From Myxococcales bacterium (GTDB lineage: Bacteria > Myxococcota_C > UBA6777): DNA of 64,000 bases. The translations under genes and the position numbers were made by a program. Each line of letters begins with the position of its first letter. The first letter of the stretch is position 1. The stretch lies in assembly GCA_020632975.1 (NCBI GenBank), contig JACKEL010000004.1, forward strand, positions 271,963 to 335,962, given 5' to 3'. The notes under the pieces are model-generated. The model was not told where the DNA came from and ran no database searches. It saw only the letters and a program-made list of their open reading frames with translations. This document shows, one piece after another, positions 6,854 to 55,761 of the stretch.

Positions 6854-8251
6854 TTAGCCCAAAGGATCGAGCATACTTTCGCGCAACTCTTCTGCGCGGT
6901 TCATCACGTCTTCAAAACGCGGAGGATAGGGCTCGACCTCTTTGAGGGCGTTGGAACACTCTTCTTCAGTGAAGCCTTCCAAAGAGCCTCCCAGTCGCGT
7001 GATCAGTTTGGCGCGGATCTTTGTGGCATAGCGGGGATTGTAGAAGTGTTCGAGCAGGTTGCTCATGGCTTGGGCGCTGCGTGCGGCGTTCCAAGCGGCT
7101 TGAAGTGGATCTCCATGTTCGCCCCAAGCCTCGACCCACAAAGGGATCGCTTCTGGGCGAAACTGAAGTTCTGCCAAAAACTCTGCGATCGGGCAGCGGG
7201 GAGGTGGCGTGCGAAAAGCTTGGATCGTCTCTTCTAGGCTCGGAGGGATGGGGACGATCTTGCGAATCAAAGGCGAGACATTGTCGCCTTCAGCGGGCAT
7301 TTGTCCGCGTTTTTCGACCTCATACTCTCGAAAAAACCACCAAAATTGCCTTTGTAGAGCTTCTTTTTGCGGGTGTTCGAGCCGCGACAACAACATCAAC
7401 ATGTGTTCGCCGTAGAGCGCATGATCCCATGCAAATTGCATGGGGTCCTCTTCGGGCGTGGGGGTGCAGCGCGTGAACCAAAGCTCTGAAGGACGCCCTT
7501 GGCTGATGATGTCCCGCCACAAATGGATCAGCGGACAGTTGGGGACGTGCGCCCGAAAACGCGGAAAATTCGGCATCGACGCAGGTGTTTGGCTGGCCTG
7601 TTCTTGGAGCGCTTCGTTGGAGAGGAAGGGTTGGGACTCTGTGGGAGCCAAGCTGCGGACAGGAGACGGTCGATTTGCATCAAACGCACCTGGCTGTGAA
7701 CGAAAGCCCCCAAGATGCGGGATCACCAGCGTTGGGGCTTTGCTGCGGCTTGGGGGATTCCAAGCTCGAAAGCGAGGAAACCACCGTGGTACGTGTTGCT
7801 TGTAGTCGATGTAACCTTCGCGAAAGCGAGCTTCGAGCGCGGGTTCCTCGAAAAGCGGTATCGAAAGGACGTAGAAAAGTGTATTGGCGGCCGCCCAAAT
7901 CGAAAGTGGAAGCGAACGAAAAAACAGCGCTTCCGCGTAAAGCACCAAAAGCAGCCCCACGATCATAGGGTTACGCAGGTGTTGGTAAGGGCCAACGATA
8001 ATGAGTTTTTTGGCGGGGGCCCAAAAAGAAGGTGTTCCACGGCTGAGTTGAAGAAACAAAGCCAAGGACCAAAAGCCCAAGAAGATCCCCAGAGAGCACG
8101 CCACAAGTGCAGCCCACAAAAAAGGAGAATGAAAGGGGGCTGGGTCCGCTGCATGAGGGGTATGACGAAAGAGCAAAAGCAAAGATACTGGAACCAGCAC
8201 GACCACACCCACCAGAAAGATGATGGTGCTTACCAGCCAACTACGCCGCAT
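6854..8251 (-). CDS. Membrane methyltransferase-family domain (PEMT/ICMT-like) fused to a ~290-aa C-terminal domain of unknown function
   Basis: The N-terminal 170 aa has 4 predicted TM helices plus the RNPMIVG...EEPALEARFREGYIDYKQHVPRWFP motif typical of ICMT/PEMT/NnrU-like methyltransferases. The remainder has no recognisable motif. Confidence 0.6.
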   Translation of the reverse strand: MRRSWLVSTIIFLVGVVVLVPVSLLLLFRHTPHAADPAPFHSPFLWAALVACSLGIFLGFWSLALFLQLSRGTPSFWAPAKKLIIVGPYQHLRNPMIVGLLLVLYAEALFFRSLPLSIWAAANTLFYVLSIPLFEEPALEARFREGYIDYKQHVPRWFPRFRAWNPPSRSKAPTLVIPHLGGFRSQPGAFDANRPSPVRSLAPTESQPFLSNEALQEQASQTPASMPNFPRFRAHVPNCPLIHLWRDIISQGRPSELWFTRCTPTPEEDPMQFAWDHALYGEHMLMLLSRLEHPQKEALQRQFWWFFREYEVEKRGQMPAEGDNVSPLIRKIVPIPPSLEETIQAFRTPPPRCPIAEFLAELQFRPEAIPLWVEAWGEHGDPLQAAWNAARSAQAMSNLLEHFYNPRYATKIRAKLITRLGGSLEGFTEEECSNALKEVEPYPPRFEDVMNRAEELRESMLDPLG

Positions 8252-23830: not shown

Positions 23831-26800
23831 ATGGATTTGAAGGAATTGTCCGCGATGTGGACAATGTGGGTCGGAGCGTGTGGGGTTGGGTGTTTTTGTA
23901 GGATGTGTTATGAGAGAAGAGGTTCAGAGCGTGTGGTGGATGGTTTCATCACCAAAGCATCCGTCAGTCGGGAAACAAAAGGAGCGAGTATGCGAGAGGT
24001 CTTGGGGCTTGCACGTGAACTTCACGATGAGGTGTGGGTCTGCGGGGATGCTTTGTTGGGTACAGAACTTTCGATGATCAACGATACGATATGGCGTTGT
24101 GGCTTTGTGCCAAACGAGCTTGTTGTGGATGAAAAAGCTCAAGATGAGGGGATGATAGAGGCTGGGGAACTTCAACAGCGAGCCGCACTGTTGGTCGTGG
24201 CAGGGCAACTTGAAGACTGGGAGGTTGGTGGGCCGCCTGCTACCGTTCTTGCGTGGATGCGCCACGCGCGCTCAGCGGGGATTGGTATCTTTATGGTGGT
24301 TTGGTGTCGTCCGCGTTTTCCGCGTGCGCGTCGTGAGGCTTTTATACAACACTGGCAGGCTGAAGGTGCTGAGATCTTTTCTACGGAAGAGGCCGATCCT
24401 TGGTCTGTTTGGGAAGAACAGCCAGTTGTTCAAAAGAGCGTGCGTGCGGATCGTGTACTTTGTTGTTCGACCGAGCAACAAGCGCTCAAAGGCATCTTTT
24501 CTTCGATCCTGTGGTTATTAACACGCCAAGAGCCCGCACATACCGCGCGAGAGCGCCATCTCGACAGCCTTTTGGGTCAAGATCTGCTTTCTAGTTCACA
24601 GAGAACCAACGACCTGACAGACGATCTTGAGGCCAGTGAGATCGCTTTGCATCACCCGAATGCTCGCAGAATCCCATTGCCTCCGATGCCTTACGTGGTA
24701 CATCCGTATATCCTGACGCGGCGATTCTTTGGTCGCGAGAATGAATTGGAGATGTTGGATGACTGGGGAAGATCGTCTGATTCGACCCTTGTGATCGATG
24801 GCATCGGCGGGGTGGGCAAGAGTGCTTTGACGTGGCACTGGTTTTGTCACTACGCAGCCCAGTCGATCCCTGATCTCGAAGGCGCGATGTGGTGGAGCTT
24901 TTACGAGAGCAACGCCACGATGGACGCTTTTTTGCGCCAAGCCTTGCTTTATGTGAGCGAACCTGCAGAAGCCGCGAGCTTACCGCTGCTCAAATACGAA
25001 GAGCGCATCGAACGGCTTTTTGAGATCCTAAAAAAGCGAAGGATTCTTTTTGTTTTTGATGGGATCGAGCGAATCATGGTGGCTTATCATCGCTTGGATG
25101 CTTCGCATCTGCGGGATGACCAAGTGGAAGCGAGCGCAGAAGTCTTACGCGAACGCCAAGAACGCTCTTTTACAGACCCGCAACATGGGGATCTTTTGCG
25201 CGTTCTCTGCCAGCAAACACAGTGCAAGTTGCTGATCAGTACGCGCCTCAAACCTTACGACCTCGAAGAAAAGATGTCCGAAGGACAATCTCCCATGCTC
25301 GATGGGATACGCTATCGTTATCTCGATAGCTTGGAGCCCAAAGATGCTTTGGCGTTGGTGGCCTCGCGCGGTGTCTCTGGAAACCAAGACGCGATGCGGG
25401 ACTTTATGGGGCTTTTTGATTACCACAGCCTTCTCTTGGGGGTCTTGGCGGGAATCATCGTCCATGATCGCCAAGCCAAGGGCGACTTCGATCGTTGGTA
25501 CGCTTTGCATCGTGAGTCGTTGGACTTTGCTGCGCTGACTTCTGCCCAACGCCGCATCATGTTGTTGCGCCTTGCTTTGGAGAGTTTGCCCAAGACCTCG
25601 CGGCGTTTGTTGTGCCAAGTTGCAGCGTTTCGTTATCCTGTACGCTTTGATGCGTTGTTGCCCTTGCATCGGCCTGTTCCAGATCCTCCGAGTGAGCCTG
25701 GACGTCCTTTTGAATACTGGCTGAACGATCTCCGCGAACAGTACGCAAACACCGATGACGACGAAGAGCGTGAATCTTTGCTTGAAGAGATCGCCTTGGA
25801 AGAAGAGGAGATCGCCGAACAACATGCGCGATGGCGTATCTTTTTGCGGGAGAAGCGACGTTATAGCCAACGTGCGGACGTTTGCGATGTGCGCGCCAAC
25901 TTCCACGTATCGCTGTGTTTGTTGGAGCGCTATGGCTTGTTGCAGTGGGATCGACCTGCGAATCGCTATGACTTGCACCCCGTGGTACGGGGGTATGCGT
26001 TTGAACAACTCGAAGGACGAGAGCGGCATAAGACATTTTCTCATATCCGCGATCACTTTGAGCGTTTGCCACCTGAAGACATGAAGACCATTGAAGAGGT
26101 CAGCGAGCTTCGCCGAACCATCGAGATCTATCATGCTTTGATCGGCGCAGGAAACTTCGATGAGGCCGCATCCTTCTACAGCACACAACTCAACCAAGTA
26201 TTGTTCAACCAGTTGGGTGCTTACTACACGATGATCGAGTTGTTGAGTCCGCTGTTCCCGAGGGGATTGGAAAAGCGTCCAGCATTGCGTTCGTTGTTTG
26301 CGCAGGGTGCGCGGATCGTGGATATCTCCAATGCCCTGAATATGGTCGGGCGCGGTGATGAAGCCAAGCGGATGCGTGCGATGTCGATCGAGATCGACTT
26401 AGAGCAGCAGAGCGGGGCGGCCTTGGGTATCTCCTTGATCAACTATGCGTTGTCTTTGGAAGACGAAGATCGCGTCGAGGCGGCCTCTCGTTGTTTGCGA
26501 CTGGCTTTGGAAGTGAGTCGCGCCGCAGAAGACGATCGCAGCGTGATCTTGTCACTGTTGTACCTGTCGTCTTTGGCTGTTGAGATGGGTGACGAAGAGT
26601 CTTTCTTGCGTTGGGAACGTGAGTTTTTTGCATGTCCTTCGTATGTAAAGACGCATGATCGTTTGGCGCGTTTGTATCTGTACCGTGCGCACTGGATGAT
26701 CGATCACGGCGAAGATCCCGAGCAAAGCAAGCTTCTCTCGCAAGCATGGGAAGAGGCTGTGGCTTGTCGAAGCGCTTCCATTCAGTGTGCTGTACAACGT

Positions 26801-27277
26801 TGGCGAGCGACTTGGGCTTTGCAACAAGGGAAACTGGATGTTGCAGAGCGAGGCTTTGAAGAAAGCATCCGTATCGCCCGCAAGTCGGGCTCTGTGAATG
26901 TTGCGATTTATCTTGGGCGCCTTGCACAAGTTCGCTTGAGGCAAGGGCGTACCCAAGAAGCGTCGATGTTGATCGAAGAAGCTCTGTCGATTCGTGAGTC
27001 TTTTATCTCGCTCCATCTTGATGCTGCGGATGTGTTTTATGCGACGGGGCAAGAAGAGCGTGGGAAACGCCATCTGTTGCGTGCTTACCAAGAAGCCTGG
27101 GCGGAAGGTCCCCCTTATTGCTGGCGTACCTCGTTGGCGCGTTGTGAAGATGCTTGCCAAGCGCGCGGTCTCCCTCTTCCCATCTTGGCACCTTTCGATC
27201 CACAATCTCGTGTTGTGTTGCCTCATGAGGAACGAATTGAAGAGTTTATCCGTCGTTTACGCGAAGATCTCGGATAA
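23831..27277 (+). CDS. STAND-class P-loop NTPase with unassigned N-terminal domain (~300 aa) and C-terminal TPR-like array (Avs/NLR-like architecture)
   Basis: Walker A VIDGIGGVGKSAL. Walker B-like ILFVFDGIER. About 500 aa of helical TPR-like repeats at the C-terminus. The true start may be the internal Met at MREVLGLARELH. Confidence 0.8.
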   Translation: MDLKELSAMWTMWVGACGVGCFCRMCYERRGSERVVDGFITKASVSRETKGASMREVLGLARELHDEVWVCGDALLGTELSMINDTIWRCGFVPNELVVDEKAQDEGMIEAGELQQRAALLVVAGQLEDWEVGGPPATVLAWMRHARSAGIGIFMVVWCRPRFPRARREAFIQHWQAEGAEIFSTEEADPWSVWEEQPVVQKSVRADRVLCCSTEQQALKGIFSSILWLLTRQEPAHTARERHLDSLLGQDLLSSSQRTNDLTDDLEASEIALHHPNARRIPLPPMPYVVHPYILTRRFFGRENELEMLDDWGRSSDSTLVIDGIGGVGKSALTWHWFCHYAAQSIPDLEGAMWWSFYESNATMDAFLRQALLYVSEPAEAASLPLLKYEERIERLFEILKKRRILFVFDGIERIMVAYHRLDASHLRDDQVEASAEVLRERQERSFTDPQHGDLLRVLCQQTQCKLLISTRLKPYDLEEKMSEGQSPMLDGIRYRYLDSLEPKDALALVASRGVSGNQDAMRDFMGLFDYHSLLLGVLAGIIVHDRQAKGDFDRWYALHRESLDFAALTSAQRRIMLLRLALESLPKTSRRLLCQVAAFRYPVRFDALLPLHRPVPDPPSEPGRPFEYWLNDLREQYANTDDDEERESLLEEIALEEEEIAEQHARWRIFLREKRRYSQRADVCDVRANFHVSLCLLERYGLLQWDRPANRYDLHPVVRGYAFEQLEGRERHKTFSHIRDHFERLPPEDMKTIEEVSELRRTIEIYHALIGAGNFDEAASFYSTQLNQVLFNQLGAYYTMIELLSPLFPRGLEKRPALRSLFAQGARIVDISNALNMVGRGDEAKRMRAMSIEIDLEQQSGAALGISLINYALSLEDEDRVEAASRCLRLALEVSRAAEDDRSVILSLLYLSSLAVEMGDEESFLRWEREFFACPSYVKTHDRLARLYLYRAHWMIDHGEDPEQSKLLSQAWEEAVACRSASIQCAVQRWRATWALQQGKLDVAERGFEESIRIARKSGSVNVAIYLGRLAQVRLRQGRTQEASMLIEEALSIRESFISLHLDAADVFYATGQEERGKRHLLRAYQEAWAEGPPYCWRTSLARCEDACQARGLPLPILAPFDPQSRVVLPHEERIEEFIRRLREDLG

Positions 27278-29785: not shown

Positions 29786-30045
29786 GATCTTGTCCTAATG
29801 TTGGGGCTTTTGCGTTCTTTTGAAACGTACACCAGATCCTAAGCCTTGAAAAGTAGGCGCATGAGAGGTTTCTGCTCAAAAACAGAATATCGTCGCCTTT
29901 TGTCGCGTCAGATGCCAGAGCCCCAAAAAACTCCACCGTGATATCTCACCTATTCGCTCAATGAACCGCGCAAAAACGTAAAGAATCTCTCTCACGCAAA
30001 AACACCGAAGAATCTTCTTTTCGTTTTCTTTCTGTTCGATAACAC

Positions 30046-30065
30046 AAGAGCACATTTGTGCTCTT
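30046..30065. promoter_or_regulatory. Perfect 9-bp inverted repeat with 2-nt spacer (AAGAGCACA TT TGTGCTCTT), ~25 nt upstream of the Cys-rich gene start
   Basis: Seen directly in the sequence. Operator-like position upstream of the Cys-rich gene start. Confidence 0.35.
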
Positions 30066-30090
30066 TTCCCCACAGATGAAGGAGACCTTT

Positions 30091-30816
30091 ATGCTCAAAA
30101 CTTATTTGCCGTTGATTTGTCTTTTGTTGTTCGCTTTTCCAAGCAAGGCAGACGCGAGATGTCGCCACGAGGGAGGGACCTACGAAGAAGGATGGACGCG
30201 TTGTTCGGGCAAAAATGCCATGCTCAAGTGCAAGAGCGGCAAGTGGGCAAACATTCTTTGGTGTCCCCATGGTTGTTACTTTGAAAAGATGGGAGAAGCC
30301 CGCTGTCACTGCGAAACATCCAGAAAGGATGGGCAGTCTTTTTGTCGTAAAAACCAGACCTGTGTGTGTAGTAGCACCCCACATAAATATTCTTCCTTCT
30401 CTTGCAAACCCTGTCAGAGTGAGCTTGTCTGCAAGCGCGGTGCTTGTGTGCCGCCCACATGTTTTGCAGGCGGAATCCATTACACAGAAGGCCAGACACG
30501 ATGCTCTTCTCGTGAACTGAATGTTTGCAAGAAAGGACGCTGGAGAAAGCTTCGGACCTGTCGCGCAGGATGTTATCGAAAAAAACAAGGTGAATCCGCG
30601 TGTATGTGCAATGGAAAAATACAGGATGGTAAGTTTTTCTGCGTCCAAAGCCGCCGTTATCAATGTATCGCAAAGTCTACAGGGACGACCAAAAGAGCGG
30701 CTGAATGCCCGAAAGGACATTTTTGCAACAAAGGGGCGTGTGTGCCACTTCGCTGCAAAAATTGTAAGAAAAATACAGTCAAATCACCAAGCAATGGATC
30801 CACAAATCTGCGCTGA
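30091..30816 (+). CDS. Secreted cysteine-rich protein with an internally duplicated ~50-aa module
   Basis: AAGGAG RBS 6 nt upstream. Signal peptide MLKTYLPLICLLLFAFPSKADA. Module CRHEGGTYEEGWTRCS...CKSGKWANILWCPHGCY...C repeats as CFAGGIHYTEGQTRCS...CKKGRWRKLRTCRAGCY...C. 34 Cys in 242 aa. Confidence 0.65.
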   Translation: MLKTYLPLICLLLFAFPSKADARCRHEGGTYEEGWTRCSGKNAMLKCKSGKWANILWCPHGCYFEKMGEARCHCETSRKDGQSFCRKNQTCVCSSTPHKYSSFSCKPCQSELVCKRGACVPPTCFAGGIHYTEGQTRCSSRELNVCKKGRWRKLRTCRAGCYRKKQGESACMCNGKIQDGKFFCVQSRRYQCIAKSTGTTKRAAECPKGHFCNKGACVPLRCKNCKKNTVKSPSNGSTNLR

Positions 30817-30849
30817 GCGGCCTCTCAAGCGGCCATGCTTGGGGAGATC

Positions 30850-31447
30850 CCAGCTTCTCCTGAGAGAAGATGCCCATGGGAAGATGGGCATGAAGGCCCT
30901 GAAGCAGAGGTGCGATGGGCATGAAGGGCATAGGGATATAAGGGGCTAAATGGGGGATAGGAGGGCGCGAGGAAGGGGCATCGGGATATAAGGGCATAGG
31001 GATATGGAGATGAGGAATAAGGGATAGGAGAGCGATGGGAGAGCGATGGGAGGGCGACCAGGAGGGCGACGGAGGGCCGGTGATGGGAGAGATGGGCGAG
31101 GGAATATTCTAGGGTGGATATTCGAGATGTGGAGGAATCAGCAAGATATTCGAGGATAGGGGCAGAGGGGCAAATATTCGAGAGAGCAGCAGGATATTCG
31201 AGATATCTAAAATCAGCAGGATCTCGAGGGATTTCGAGGGAATATCAAAAATCGGGAAGAGCAGTCGTTTTAGGAGGAATCTCTGTGGCTTATCAAATCA
31301 GGGAATCTCGGTCATTTTCGGGGATATCTAAAATCGGGAATCTCGGTCGTTTCCTGGGGCGGCCCTCTGTGGCCGCCCTAAAAAGAGATCCAAGGATATC
31401 GAGGATTTATCCTGGCCGCCCTAAAAAAGATCCAAGGATATCGAGGA
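30850..31447. repeat. ~600-bp non-coding, strongly purine-rich (top strand) multi-family short-repeat tract in a convergent intergenic region
   Basis: Block 1 (30880-31100) is almost pure G/A, with gggatataaggg, gcgatggga and gagggcga reiterations. Block 2 has (G)ATATTCGAG four times at 23-31 bp spacing. Block 3 has ATCTAAAATC(A/G)G twice and GGGAATCTCGGTC(A/G)TTT twice. There is a GGGCGGCC-ctctgt-GGCCGCCC hairpin at 31356-31377. Block 4 is a ~36-bp direct repeat, GGCCGCCCTAAAAA(G)AGATCCAAGGATATCGAGGATT, twice. Confidence 0.65.
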
Positions 31448-32554
31448 TTATTCGTCGTCGCTAGCGTTGTTGGGGCTGATGGAGAGGAGGTTGGAGAGGT
31501 CGCTGGTGTTGGTGATGAGCGTGAGCTTTTGAACTTTTCCAGCGATCTCTTTCCACGTTTCGAGTTCTTTCAATCGAAGCAGTGTGGGGTTGCGTTCGAG
31601 CATCTTTGCGGTGTTTGCGAGCGAACGTGTCGCAGCGGTTTCTTCACGACGCAGGATGTTGTTGGCAGCGGCTTCTTTTTCAGCTTCGATCACGCGGTTC
31701 AGCAGTTGTTTCATTTCGCCGGGCAGAACGATGTCTTTGATGTCAGTTCGTACGATTTGGACACCCCACTCTTGGCTACGGGGCTCCAGTTCAGCGCGCA
31801 TGGAAGTTGCGATCTCTACGCGGCTTTCGAGCAATTCGTCAACGGTGTGCCCTGCGATGAAGGAGCGCGCGATCATCTGTGTTTCGCTGTAGATAGCGTT
31901 GTAGAGGTTATCGACGCTTTCGACGCTGCGTTGGGCATCATGGATCTTGTACTTGATGATCAAGTTGAGTCGCAGCGAGACTTTATCGCGCGTCATGACC
32001 TCTTGTCCGACGATTTGGATCTCTTGTTCGCGGAGGTCCAACAGGCGGATATCGAGTTTGCGCCTCCACACGCTCAGGGCGTAGTTTCCTGCGTCCAGTG
32101 TCTTTTCGAGCTTGCCATTGACGTAAAGCAGGGCTTGTTGGTAGGGCAAGACACTTTGGTTGTTGACGAACTCGTTGGCGATGAGCTTGCGGTGATCTTC
32201 GGGGATCTCAAGGAAAAGCTCATTGAGGTCGTAACGATGGAGTTTTGTGGGAAACCGTTCCGTCCAAAGGATGTAACGTCCGGGCCGCAGCATGCTGTGG
32301 GGTCGGTTATCGATTTCAAGGATGGCGATCTCGTGGCTTTCGATGGTCGCGAGTTCGCCTGCATTTTTTGGTAAGAGGCGTTCAATCTCGGCGGTTAGGT
32401 AGGTGTAGCCACCATCCAAGTTAATCTTGCGGACTTCGAAGGTCGAGCCAAAATTCCACCATGTATGGCGACCAGCGTCGAGCCAGCGAGTAAGCTTGCC
32501 ATCTTTGTAGAGCAAGCCGCGTTCATTTTCTTGGATGATAACATCAGTACGCAT
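31448..32554 (-). CDS. SPFH/Band 7 (stomatin/prohibitin-like) domain protein, apparently without an N-terminal TM helix
   Basis: SPFH core starts ALLYVNGKLEKTLDAG...VMTRDKVSLRLNLIIKYKI, followed by coiled-coil EAEKEAAANNILRREETAATR. The first ~110 aa look like a partial duplication of the SPFH N-terminal strands. Confidence 0.75.
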   Translation of the reverse strand: MRTDVIIQENERGLLYKDGKLTRWLDAGRHTWWNFGSTFEVRKINLDGGYTYLTAEIERLLPKNAGELATIESHEIAILEIDNRPHSMLRPGRYILWTERFPTKLHRYDLNELFLEIPEDHRKLIANEFVNNQSVLPYQQALLYVNGKLEKTLDAGNYALSVWRRKLDIRLLDLREQEIQIVGQEVMTRDKVSLRLNLIIKYKIHDAQRSVESVDNLYNAIYSETQMIARSFIAGHTVDELLESRVEIATSMRAELEPRSQEWGVQIVRTDIKDIVLPGEMKQLLNRVIEAEKEAAANNILRREETAATRSLANTAKMLERNPTLLRLKELETWKEIAGKVQKLTLITNTSDLSNLLSISPNNASDDE

Positions 32555-54706: not shown

Positions 54707-55761
54707 TGCGAATGATGAGGATGCCCTTGTTTTCTCTCTTGGATCTCTTCGGATGGGGCATAAGGATCAGCCGTTTGGGTTGGGTGTTTTGTGTCTGTTT
54801 GTTGTGTCTTTTGGTGGGGGGTGGGGCTTTTGCAGAAACGGCGACCCCACAGCCGAACCCTTCGACGAAAGTGACCCCACAGCCGAACCCTTCGACAAAA
54901 ACAGCCCCTGCGCCTCGTAGAAAAGCGGCCAAAGAAAAACAAGATGTCTCTTCCCAAAAAAGAGTAGAGAAAAAGTCTGATAAAAGAAAAGCGTCTTCTA
55001 AAAAGGTCGACCGTGCGATGGTTTTGGTGCCTTCGATGAAGACGTTGGCGTTGAAGCCAAAAAAGAAGAAAAAGAAAAAAAGATTTCGTCATGAGTTTGA
55101 GGGGCGCATCCACATCATCTCCGAACATACGGGCCTTGATAGTGGATTTGCCCCTGAGTTTCAGTATCGTTTTCGCATGGATCGATGGTTGGATTTACGC
55201 GCGGGGATTCGCGTGGCGCCACCGGGGTTTGGAGATGCTTTGCGATATTATCTCAGTGGTTTTGTGCATGTCCCGTTGCCCTTGGTTCGCGATGGTGCGC
55301 TTGGGGTGATGGTGATGCACAACAGCTATGGCGATATCCAAAAAGGCGAAAATACATTTTTTTTCTTGCACCACTTTGATATGCGCTACTTTGCCTTTGA
55401 TGGCGGACTGGTCTTGCGTTCTGAGCTTGTGCATCCAAGCACATTTCGCAATCCCTTCCTTTTTTCGACCGAATATCTCGAAGTTTTCTATGTTTACGAT
55501 ATGCGCGTCAAGATCGACTTTACCTTCCCAAAGCTTGGGGGGAGTGTCTTGCAGATCGGCGCGGGCTTGATGAACTTCCTCGACAATGATGTGCAAGGCC
55601 CCGCGACAGGGGGATATCGGTTCTTTGCATCGTGGGATCAGCCGAATGTCGGTCGATTTGAAGTGATGGGTGGTTTGATGAGCTATGGTTTTTGGGCTTT
55701 TGCGGGGTATTACGGACGTTGGTTTTTGCGCTTCTCTTATACCTATACACTCGATATCTGA
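54706..55761 (+). CDS. Hypothetical secreted protein, possible outer-membrane beta-barrel, paralog 2
   Basis: ATG overlaps the upstream stop (TGATG). Signal peptide ending GGGAFA. Duplicated TPQPNPSTK. KKKKKKK tract. C-terminal YTYTLDI. Confidence 0.55.
   Translation: MRMMRMPLFSLLDLFGWGIRISRLGWVFCVCLLCLLVGGGAFAETATPQPNPSTKVTPQPNPSTKTAPAPRRKAAKEKQDVSSQKRVEKKSDKRKASSKKVDRAMVLVPSMKTLALKPKKKKKKKRFRHEFEGRIHIISEHTGLDSGFAPEFQYRFRMDRWLDLRAGIRVAPPGFGDALRYYLSGFVHVPLPLVRDGALGVMVMHNSYGDIQKGENTFFFLHHFDMRYFAFDGGLVLRSELVHPSTFRNPFLFSTEYLEVFYVYDMRVKIDFTFPKLGGSVLQIGAGLMNFLDNDVQGPATGGYRFFASWDQPNVGRFEVMGGLMSYGFWAFAGYYGRWFLRFSYTYTLDI

Follow-up and report, generated by a model that had tools for sequence, protein, structure and literature searches.

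A compound, strain-variable repeat tract with a U-less hairpin and a rut-like composition behind a slipin gene in an uncultured myxobacterium

What is the nature of a 600-bp tract of short repeats that fills the 3' flank of a slipin gene, and might it serve any purpose there? The question is raised by a 64-kb stretch of DNA (hereafter, the window) that is part of the ordinary chromosome of an uncultured Myxococcota bacterium (myxobacterium). The repeats span positions 30817-31447 of the window, between an orphan Cys-rich ORF and a gene of the SPFH family labeled 'slipin family protein [Myxococcales bacterium]' in the sources (Table 1). The neighbors of the tract within the window encode P450, amine oxidase, Ser/Thr kinases, TonB/ExbBD, PdxJ, and SecA, and no rep, par, or integrase genes are present across the 64 kb.

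All the repeat families listed in the original prediction for this region are indeed present, far above chance. The array of four copies is formed by ATATTCGAG (positions 31118, 31146, 31174, and 31194, that is, at a spacing of 28, 28, and 20 nt), which has a single further copy elsewhere in the 64 kb, against 0.25 expected. The two-copy families are ATCTAAAATCRG (31206 and 31327) and GGGAATCTCGGTCRTTT (31301 and 31336), and the longer duplicated unit, originally given as 36 bp, measures 39-42 nt (31381 and 31423). Beyond these, we found an 11-nt tandem repeat, GATGGGAGAGC (31023-31057), three copies of GGGCATAGGGATATAAGGG, and a tandem pair of GGATYTCGAG; TRF, in addition to 3.2 copies of the 11-nt unit, reports 2.3 copies of a 10-nt unit. 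The predicted perfect 8-bp GC hairpin was recovered as well (31357-31378), and a degenerate second copy of its motif lies at ~31060-31079, as an inverted repeat inside the region of the 11-nt array. Repeated 10-mers cover 116 of the 589 tract positions examined, compared to 3.1 ± 3.2 in dinucleotide shuffles, and the tract is the most repetitive non-coding stretch within the window. Short units (11, 10, 28, 35, and 42 nt) are arranged head to tail, and altogether, at least five adjacent arrays can be delineated, with units of 11, ~16-50, 20-28, 35-47, and 42 nt.

Table 1. Features of the repeat tract and of the genes at its two borders (window coordinates)
Feature	Coordinates	Strand	Details
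Orphan secreted Cys-rich ORF	30091..30816	+	Signal peptide and RBS visible in sequence; the cassette forms the distal border of the tract
8-bp hairpin ATGCCCAT-GGGAAG-ATGGGCAT	30870..30891		-13.2 kcal/mol, z -2.4; distal edge of the tract
Rut-like stretch, slipin sense strand	30875..31198	-	C 144, G 35, 118 YC dimers; almost no secondary structure
G-run-rich units, GATGGGCATGAAGG (two copies) and GGGCATAGGGATATAAGGG (three copies)	30880..31015		Two plus-strand G-quadruplex motifs
11-nt tandem array, GATGGGAGAGC / GATAGGAGGGC	31016..31102		TRF 3.2 copies
GATATTCGAG core array, four cores	31116..31203		Units of 20-28 nt, ending in CAGCAR
3-4 degenerate 35-47-nt units (GATATCTAAAATC...GGGAATCTCGGTCRTTT)	31202..31356		Includes the tandem GGATYTCGAG pair at 31219-31241
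Perfect 8-bp GC hairpin, GGGCGGCC-CTCTGT-GGCCGCCC	31357..31378		Proposed 3'-end/terminator hairpin of the slipin transcript
42/43-nt unit (TGGCCGCCCTAAAAAGAGATCCAAGGATATCGAGGATT...), two copies	31370..31447		Abuts the slipin stop codon
Slipin / SPFH (Band_7) gene	31448..32554	-	Pfam Band_7, 4.5e-33; the repeat tract is its 3' flank

A search for exact matches to the slipin protein retrieved the locus from three further assemblies of the same species, namely, a second NCBI MAG, GCA_020633035.1 (L001), and two Logan contigs (L002 and L003). The sequences flanking the tract are 99.2-99.6% identical to those of the window in L001 and 99.7-99.8% identical, where aligned, in L002 and L003. Nevertheless, the four assemblies represent four haplotypes of the tract, all built from the same repeat families in unvarying order. 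L001 has ~10 copies of the 11-nt unit compared to 3 in the window; the 42-nt unit occurs in 2 copies in the window, L001, and L003, and in a single copy in L002; and a block of ~84 nt (~31209-31292) occurs only in the window, with L001 and L003 lacking it. L001 and L003 also differ from the window in how many GATATTCGAG cores they carry and in how these are spaced, and one of the cores has decayed in two different ways in these two assemblies. The only block that is invariant in all four haplotypes consists of the ~85 nt adjoining the slipin gene and includes the GC hairpin. Because insertions and deletions of repeat units occur amid flanks that are 99.2-99.8% identical, the tract apparently changes by slippage or unequal recombination. 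The comparison with related genomes for expansion or contraction, which had been proposed as a check of the original prediction, thus reveals unit-sized differences between near-identical strains. The haplotypes demonstrate that the tract evolves by gain and loss of whole units; it is a compound, non-coding minisatellite (VNTR), apparently confined to a single locus.

In these respects, the tract resembles MIRU-type and other VNTR loci used in MLVA, in which short intergenic repeats are arranged head to tail, the copy number differs among near-identical strains and changes via slippage or unequal recombination, and one copy abuts the stop codon of the upstream gene. Unlike those loci, the tract chains at least five unit families within one 600-bp spacer. 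Furthermore, MIRU and BOX are multi-copy families, whereas no second locus was found for the units of the tract. This difference bears on whether the tract might be a dispersed element of the REP/BOX/MITE type or an artefact of assembly, the two outcomes that were named as counting against the original prediction. The modular, BOX-like make-up of the tract and the breaks of Logan contigs inside it are compatible with such an origin. However, a blastn-short search of the other 63 kb of the window detected no second copy of the tract units, only one 14-nt chance match, and neither plasmid nor phage nor viral-contig collections yielded a match to the tract, so that no dispersal is apparent in any of these. 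Searches of protein databases likewise revealed no related spurious ORFs. The pattern used to scan genome contigs (two GATATTCGAG cores 5-35 nt apart) was overly loose, with unrelated chance matches among the matches listed. The tract is real rather than an artefact of assembly because its families recur, in unchanged order, in four independent assemblies. We consider the dispersed-element or artefact explanation to be extremely improbable.

The immediate surroundings of the tract are themselves variable. The Cys-rich ORF has an atypical codon usage, and for its product, both the homolog search and the exact-record look-up came back empty. The ORF is strain-specific, with window positions ~29805-30855 missing from L001, where the gene order is slipin, tract, a 135-aa gene, and P450, all co-directional. 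Therefore, the location of the tract between two convergent genes, as originally described, holds for the strain of the window but not for L001, that is, within the same species, and is a strain-specific setting. The slipin 3' flank is situated on the edge of a strain-variable gene island. Further variation is observed at the same position in wider relatives. In one strain of a sister species, the slipin of which is 79% identical, the slipin gene is followed by 155 nt and a radical-SAM gene, whereas in other strains of that species, an HNH / N6_N4-methylase module is inserted after the slipin gene; in L138, Eco29kI and a C5 methylase are additionally found further along. In L012, with a 64% identical slipin, AAA_15/21 and DUF4276 genes follow. 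Because different genes are inserted there in different relatives, the 3' flank of the slipin gene is an insertion hot spot. The 600-nt repeat tract itself is specific to the species of the window.

The original prediction denied the tract any coding capacity, and several lines of evidence bear this out. The ORF that crosses the tract (31114-31464, ORF116) has a codon score of -0.28, compared to +0.2 to +0.35 for the real genes of the window, and neither this ORF nor a 72-aa ORF on the minus strand, the two with the longest translations in the tract, has homologs among 5.8e9 and 1.84e9 proteins. Repeat units of 11, 28, and 35 nt are not divisible by 3 and could not maintain a reading frame. 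The haplotypes differ in their ORFs across the tract, which are not conserved in L001, and the gene table of this sister MAG lists no gene at the tract. Thus, codon usage, the absence of homologs, and the haplotype-variable ORFs rule out a protein-coding gene.

We then considered a non-coding RNA transcribed from the plus strand, namely, a purine-rich protein sponge similar to CsrB/RsmZ, with many GGA/SD-like motifs and an end at the GC hairpin. Such a sponge would account for the enrichment of GGA on the plus strand (36 in 631 nt against 23.8 ± 3.9 in composition-matched shuffles, with a window median of 9 per 600 nt) and for the prediction that the purine-rich part is largely unpaired. Sponge RNAs evolve by repeat turnover, and the tract, being GGA-dense, repeat-built, and fast-evolving, is similar to CsrB/RsmZ in this respect. 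However, the tract differs from these RNAs in lacking an Rfam match, a promoter, presentation of GGA in hairpin loops, and a conserved 5' boundary. The Rfam search, performed for the whole window at the gathering threshold and for the tract at E up to 10, produced chance matches only. Global folding of the tract revealed no significant structure on either strand (z -0.48 and +0.23 compared to shuffles), with the former value for the putative sponge strand, on which the GGA motifs lie outside hairpin loops. Scans for sigma-70 promoters and intrinsic terminators in and beside the tract found nothing above the shuffle expectation, leaving the plus strand without a promoter-like site, and the GC hairpin has no U-tract. 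Because the window strain and L001 have altogether different DNA preceding the tract, there is no conserved plus-strand promoter. A sigma-54-like TGGCC-N-CTTGC element noticed by eye in L001 was dropped given its spacing of 11 rather than 10 nt. A literature search for CsrA in Myxococcota produced nothing usable. With GGA enrichment as the sole sponge-like property observed, we rejected the CsrB/RsmZ-type candidate, and a sponge RNA at this locus seems very unlikely.

The cores that recur along the tract were originally perceived as an iteron-like protein-binding array. A site array of this kind could be bound by a transcription factor or by a nucleoid or centromere-binding protein that recognizes the GATATTCGAG / GGATNTCGAGG cores or the 11-nt repeats. 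Several short direct-repeat families within one non-coding region are typical of the iteron arrays of plasmids and secondary chromosomes. The comparators include the 11-bp repeats of R1 parC as well as the 12-mers and 39-mers of Vibrio ori2, and the tract similarly combines an 11-nt tandem array with ~40-nt units. The 9-10-nt cores are perfectly conserved whereas their spacers are dissimilar, and selection for a DNA-binding site could equally explain this pattern; inspection of the sequence shows at least eight related sites that contain TCGAG; the period of the 11-nt tandem array nearly equals the helical repeat; and in L001, the tract lies upstream of the 135-aa/P450 operon. Conversely, microhomology-driven slippage would likewise preserve cores. 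The spacing of the cores is irregular and strain-dependent (28, 28, and 20 in the window vs 31, 11, and 22-23 in L001), and the decay of one core has taken different courses in L001 and L003. Unlike iteron arrays, the tract is located in an ordinary chromosomal neighborhood with no adjoining rep, par, or regulator gene, has no DnaA boxes and no AT-rich unwinding region (the GC content never falls below 0.42), and is unstable in copy number between strains. The description as an iteron-like array accordingly does not hold up given the irregular, strain-variable spacing and the lack of a cognate gene, DnaA box, or AT-rich region. A replication origin was rejected on the same grounds, with no rep or par gene in the 64 kb and no AT-rich DUE, and a binding array of any other kind appears to be a poor prospect.

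The composition of the tract is unusual but less extreme than originally described. Rather than being almost pure G/A for ~220 nt, the segment 30890-31110 contains 76% purine (G 47%, A 29%), although it is the only part of the window that reaches at least 75% purine per 100 nt. Formation of H-DNA calls for an extended homopurine-homopyrimidine mirror repeat free of interruptions. The longest unbroken run of purines in the tract measures 10 nt, and the homopurine mirror arms do not exceed 6-7 nt, so the prerequisites for H-DNA are missing, and the predicted triplex competence, along with an intramolecular triplex as a candidate structure, had to be abandoned. The plus strand does carry candidate G-quadruplexes, which, as another form of non-B DNA, could act as a barrier to replication or transcription or as a recombination hot spot that drives the turnover of the island. 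Four G3+ runs with loops of 1-7 nt occur at 30917-30965 and at 30975-31001, so that the tract harbors 2 of the 7 G-quadruplex motifs of the window, and G3+ runs are in significant excess (19 in 221 nt vs 12.1 ± 2.0 in shuffles). The locus also adjoins a strain-variable island in several lineages. However, these motifs amount to two short segments without obvious conservation, and the sister species carry their islands at the same position without such a tract. Together with the absence of the H-DNA prerequisites, this makes a non-B structure a most doubtful explanation.

The remaining features of the tract are best considered on the sense strand of the slipin gene. The GC hairpin is located 69 nt past the slipin stop codon, has an all-GC stem, is unique in the window, and is highly stable (-21.4 and -21.0 kcal/mol on the two strands, with z about -3). 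No U-tract follows the hairpin on either strand, with the plus strand reading UAAAAAG and the minus strand, CAGGAAAC, and a consensus scan found no hairpin-plus-T-run at 31357-31378 on either strand, so this is not an intrinsic (Rho-independent) terminator. Farther downstream, the read-through transcript would be rich in C and poor in G. On the minus strand, 30875-31198 is the longest part of the window over which C/G stays at 3 or more in 78-nt windows (324 nt, with 159 nt for the runner-up), with C/G values of 3.8-7.0, although the window-wide G>C skew on the plus strand lowers the specificity of minus-strand C/G ratios. The 118 YC dimers per 324 nt are the window maximum (median, 43; 99th percentile, 78), and several 78-nt windows fit the C-spacing pattern of RhoTermPredict. 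The predicted minimum free energy is -0.084 kcal/mol/nt, compared to -0.303 ± 0.047 for the background, that is, 4.7 SD above it, and none of the 214 background windows is as unstructured. In the 11-nt array of L001, the YC autocorrelation is 0.38 at lag 11. The hairpin at the distal edge of the tract (30870-30891) is possibly a pause hairpin downstream of this rut-like stretch.

A published definition of a rut site is a 78-nt window in which C/G exceeds 1 and a C recurs every 11-13 nt (PMC6407284), and the features associated with rut sites include YC dimers, C>G bubbles, and depleted structure (PMC13613805). At Rho-dependent 3' ends, stem-loops typically lack U-tracts and rut sites are enriched downstream, and homologs of Rho are present in most bacterial lineages (PMC13613805). 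The stretch 30875-31198 of the minus strand displays the C/G ratio, C spacing, YC density, and lack of structure of rut sequences, and the order of the elements on the slipin sense strand (stop codon, 69 nt, U-less hairpin, C-rich RNA) fits the published pattern (PMC13613805). Because these published criteria and the order of the elements match, we infer that the hairpin probably marks the 3' end of the slipin mRNA and is followed by a long candidate Rho-loading region; a hairpin plus rut-like 3' region that would end the slipin transcript is the best reading of the locus. This undermines the original argument that the tract stands out in a place where only terminators would normally be expected: its conserved part is a terminator-like hairpin, and the other strand of its purine-rich part is rut-like.

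Under this termination reading, the slipin-proximal ~85 nt with the U-less GC hairpin would be the functional core, providing the slipin mRNA with a protected 3' end. The purine-rich part farther from the gene would act via the other strand, given that slipin RNA reading through it would be C-rich, G-poor, YC-rich, and unstructured. Because the rut signature resides in this distal C-rich read-through RNA, Rho would be expected to load there and to stop transcription before the next genes. The DNA shielded in this way would be the antisense strand of the Cys-rich ORF in the strain of the window and the 135-aa/P450 operon in the sister strain. The repeat families, then, might be by-products of slippage in a sequence that is constrained mainly, or only, in composition.

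Compared to the Rho-dependent terminators described previously (PMC6407284, PMC13613805), the tract shares a stable, U-less stem-loop soon after the stop codon and, downstream of it, RNA with C/G far above 1 that is YC-rich and almost unstructured, with an 11-nt YC spacing in L001. It differs in that the C-rich stretch, which consists of tandem repeats, is ~4 times as long as a canonical rut site of ~78 nt, and in that the most extreme part of this stretch is found ~180-480 nt beyond the hairpin. The start of this extreme part ~180 nt past the hairpin is more distant than the reported peak of rut sites at ~50 nt, and this counts against the termination reading.

The style of the 3' end recurs in relatives. 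In L136, a member of the sister species whose slipin is 79% identical, a GGGCGG..CCGCCC hairpin that again lacks a U-tract is found 33 nt after the slipin stop codon, and in L012, the 3' flank of the slipin gene is C-rich and unstructured (-3.3 kcal/mol for 87 nt; maximum C/G, 8). The 79% sister species (L004, L134, L135, and L136) has no comparable C-rich tract, so this feature is not conserved beyond the species of the window and L012. Conservation of composition at the orthologous loci, seen in L012 but not in the 79% sister species, may thus be taken as weak comparative support for a role in termination.

The main rival to the termination reading is a purely neutral slippage scar. On this account, the hairpin is the only functional element, and the other ~500 nt are a neutral, cryptically simple product of slippage or a scar of recombination that originated at an insertion hot spot and drifts in copy number. 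The unit-sized indels between near-identical strains are readily explained in this manner, as is the restriction of the tract to one species, the corresponding position in sister species being occupied by 155 nt or by an inserted R-M island. Furthermore, a strain-specific gene cassette abuts the tract at its distal border, and the RNA of the tract has no significant structure overall (z -0.48 and +0.23). However, the compositional extremes are window-wide maxima that extend across all repeat families and are found in both full-length haplotypes, which suggests constraint on composition rather than free drift. In addition, bacteria usually delete neutral DNA. We regard the neutral explanation as unlikely, although it deserves more weight than the other alternatives discussed above.

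Taken together, the data are best accommodated by a joint reading in which a compound VNTR in the 3' flank of the slipin gene is combined with a U-less hairpin and a putative rut-like Rho-loading region; we assign to this combination a probability of roughly 0.55. A bolder version, which we consider improbable, envisages a self-renewing, repeat-built cis-element with its function vested in composition or short cores. Such an element could be an oversized Rho platform with an 11-nt YC period that would insulate the slipin gene from the exchanged island or, alternatively, a set of GATATTCGAG sites for an unknown DNA-binding protein that would mark the insertion hot spot; in either case, the copy number would tune its strength between strains.

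The tract is real and statistically solid but fairly ordinary, consisting of slippage-prone, non-coding short repeats; it opens no new class of element, and the more exotic-looking H-DNA and iteron ideas fail. The analysis also points to the 3' flank of the slipin gene as a hot spot at which R-M and other variable genes insert. If the joint reading is right, the tract would be a useful marker for strain typing in this uncultured Myxococcota lineage. It would also represent a bacterial 3' region that is maintained by its composition, that is, C-rich, unstructured RNA and a U-less hairpin, even as slippage replaces the actual sequence within a species.

In related species, the region 3' of the slipin gene is a hot spot for insertions, as seen from what follows this gene in strains of the sister species (L135, L136 and L138) and in a more distant relative (L012; see the table). 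In the distant relative, the final 23 nucleotides of the slipin gene together with the stop codon are repeated 84 nucleotides downstream (copies at 7091-7121 and 7175-7205; 94% identity), a duplication that resembles an att-like scar left by integration at the 3' end of the gene.

Features of the slipin 3' flank in related loci and of the window
Locus	Position	Strand	Feature	Remarks
L135	367-2119		inserted HNH and N6_N4 methylase	slipin 3' flank
L138	9332-15957		inserted HNH and N6_N4 methylase, plus Eco29kI and C5 methylase	slipin 3' flank
L136	9108-9262		no insertion	slipin 3' flank
L012	7163-12828		AAA_15/21 and DUF4276	slipin 3' flank; more distant relative
window	23831-27277	+	large AAA_16 and TPR (STAND-like) protein	
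window	30091-30816	+	orphan secreted Cys-rich ORF	241 aa; signal peptide; AAGGAG RBS
window	54843-54900		near-perfect 30-nt tandem duplication	TRF score 109; 96% matches

Logan contigs of both species, assembled from several runs (L002 and L005-L011), end 69-70 nucleotides past the slipin stop codon. In L002, which comes from the species of the window, the contig end lies just beyond the point where the haplotypes diverge; in the sister species, the strains diverge about 45 nucleotides past the stop codon, that is, about 25 nucleotides before the shared contig end.

Across the whole window, GATATC occurs 50 times, compared to 6.2 +/- 2.5 in dinucleotide shuffles, and 4 of these 50 sites lie in 31202-31442. 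Asp-Ile codon pairs may be all that underlies this excess. The plus strand of the window shows strong asymmetry (29.7% G vs 23.3% C), and because of this, many 78-nucleotide windows of the minus strand have a C/G ratio above 2. The top-scoring tandem repeat that TRF detected in the window is the 30-nucleotide duplication.

The STAND-like protein is encoded within the variable segment that extends from the slipin gene to pdxJ. The Cys-rich ORF, located beside the repeat tract, is present in the window strain and missing in the conspecific sister MAG (GCA_020633035.1). A search among 5.8 × 10^9 proteins found no homologue of its product, and its codon usage is atypical; therefore, this ORF is probably a recently acquired gene.
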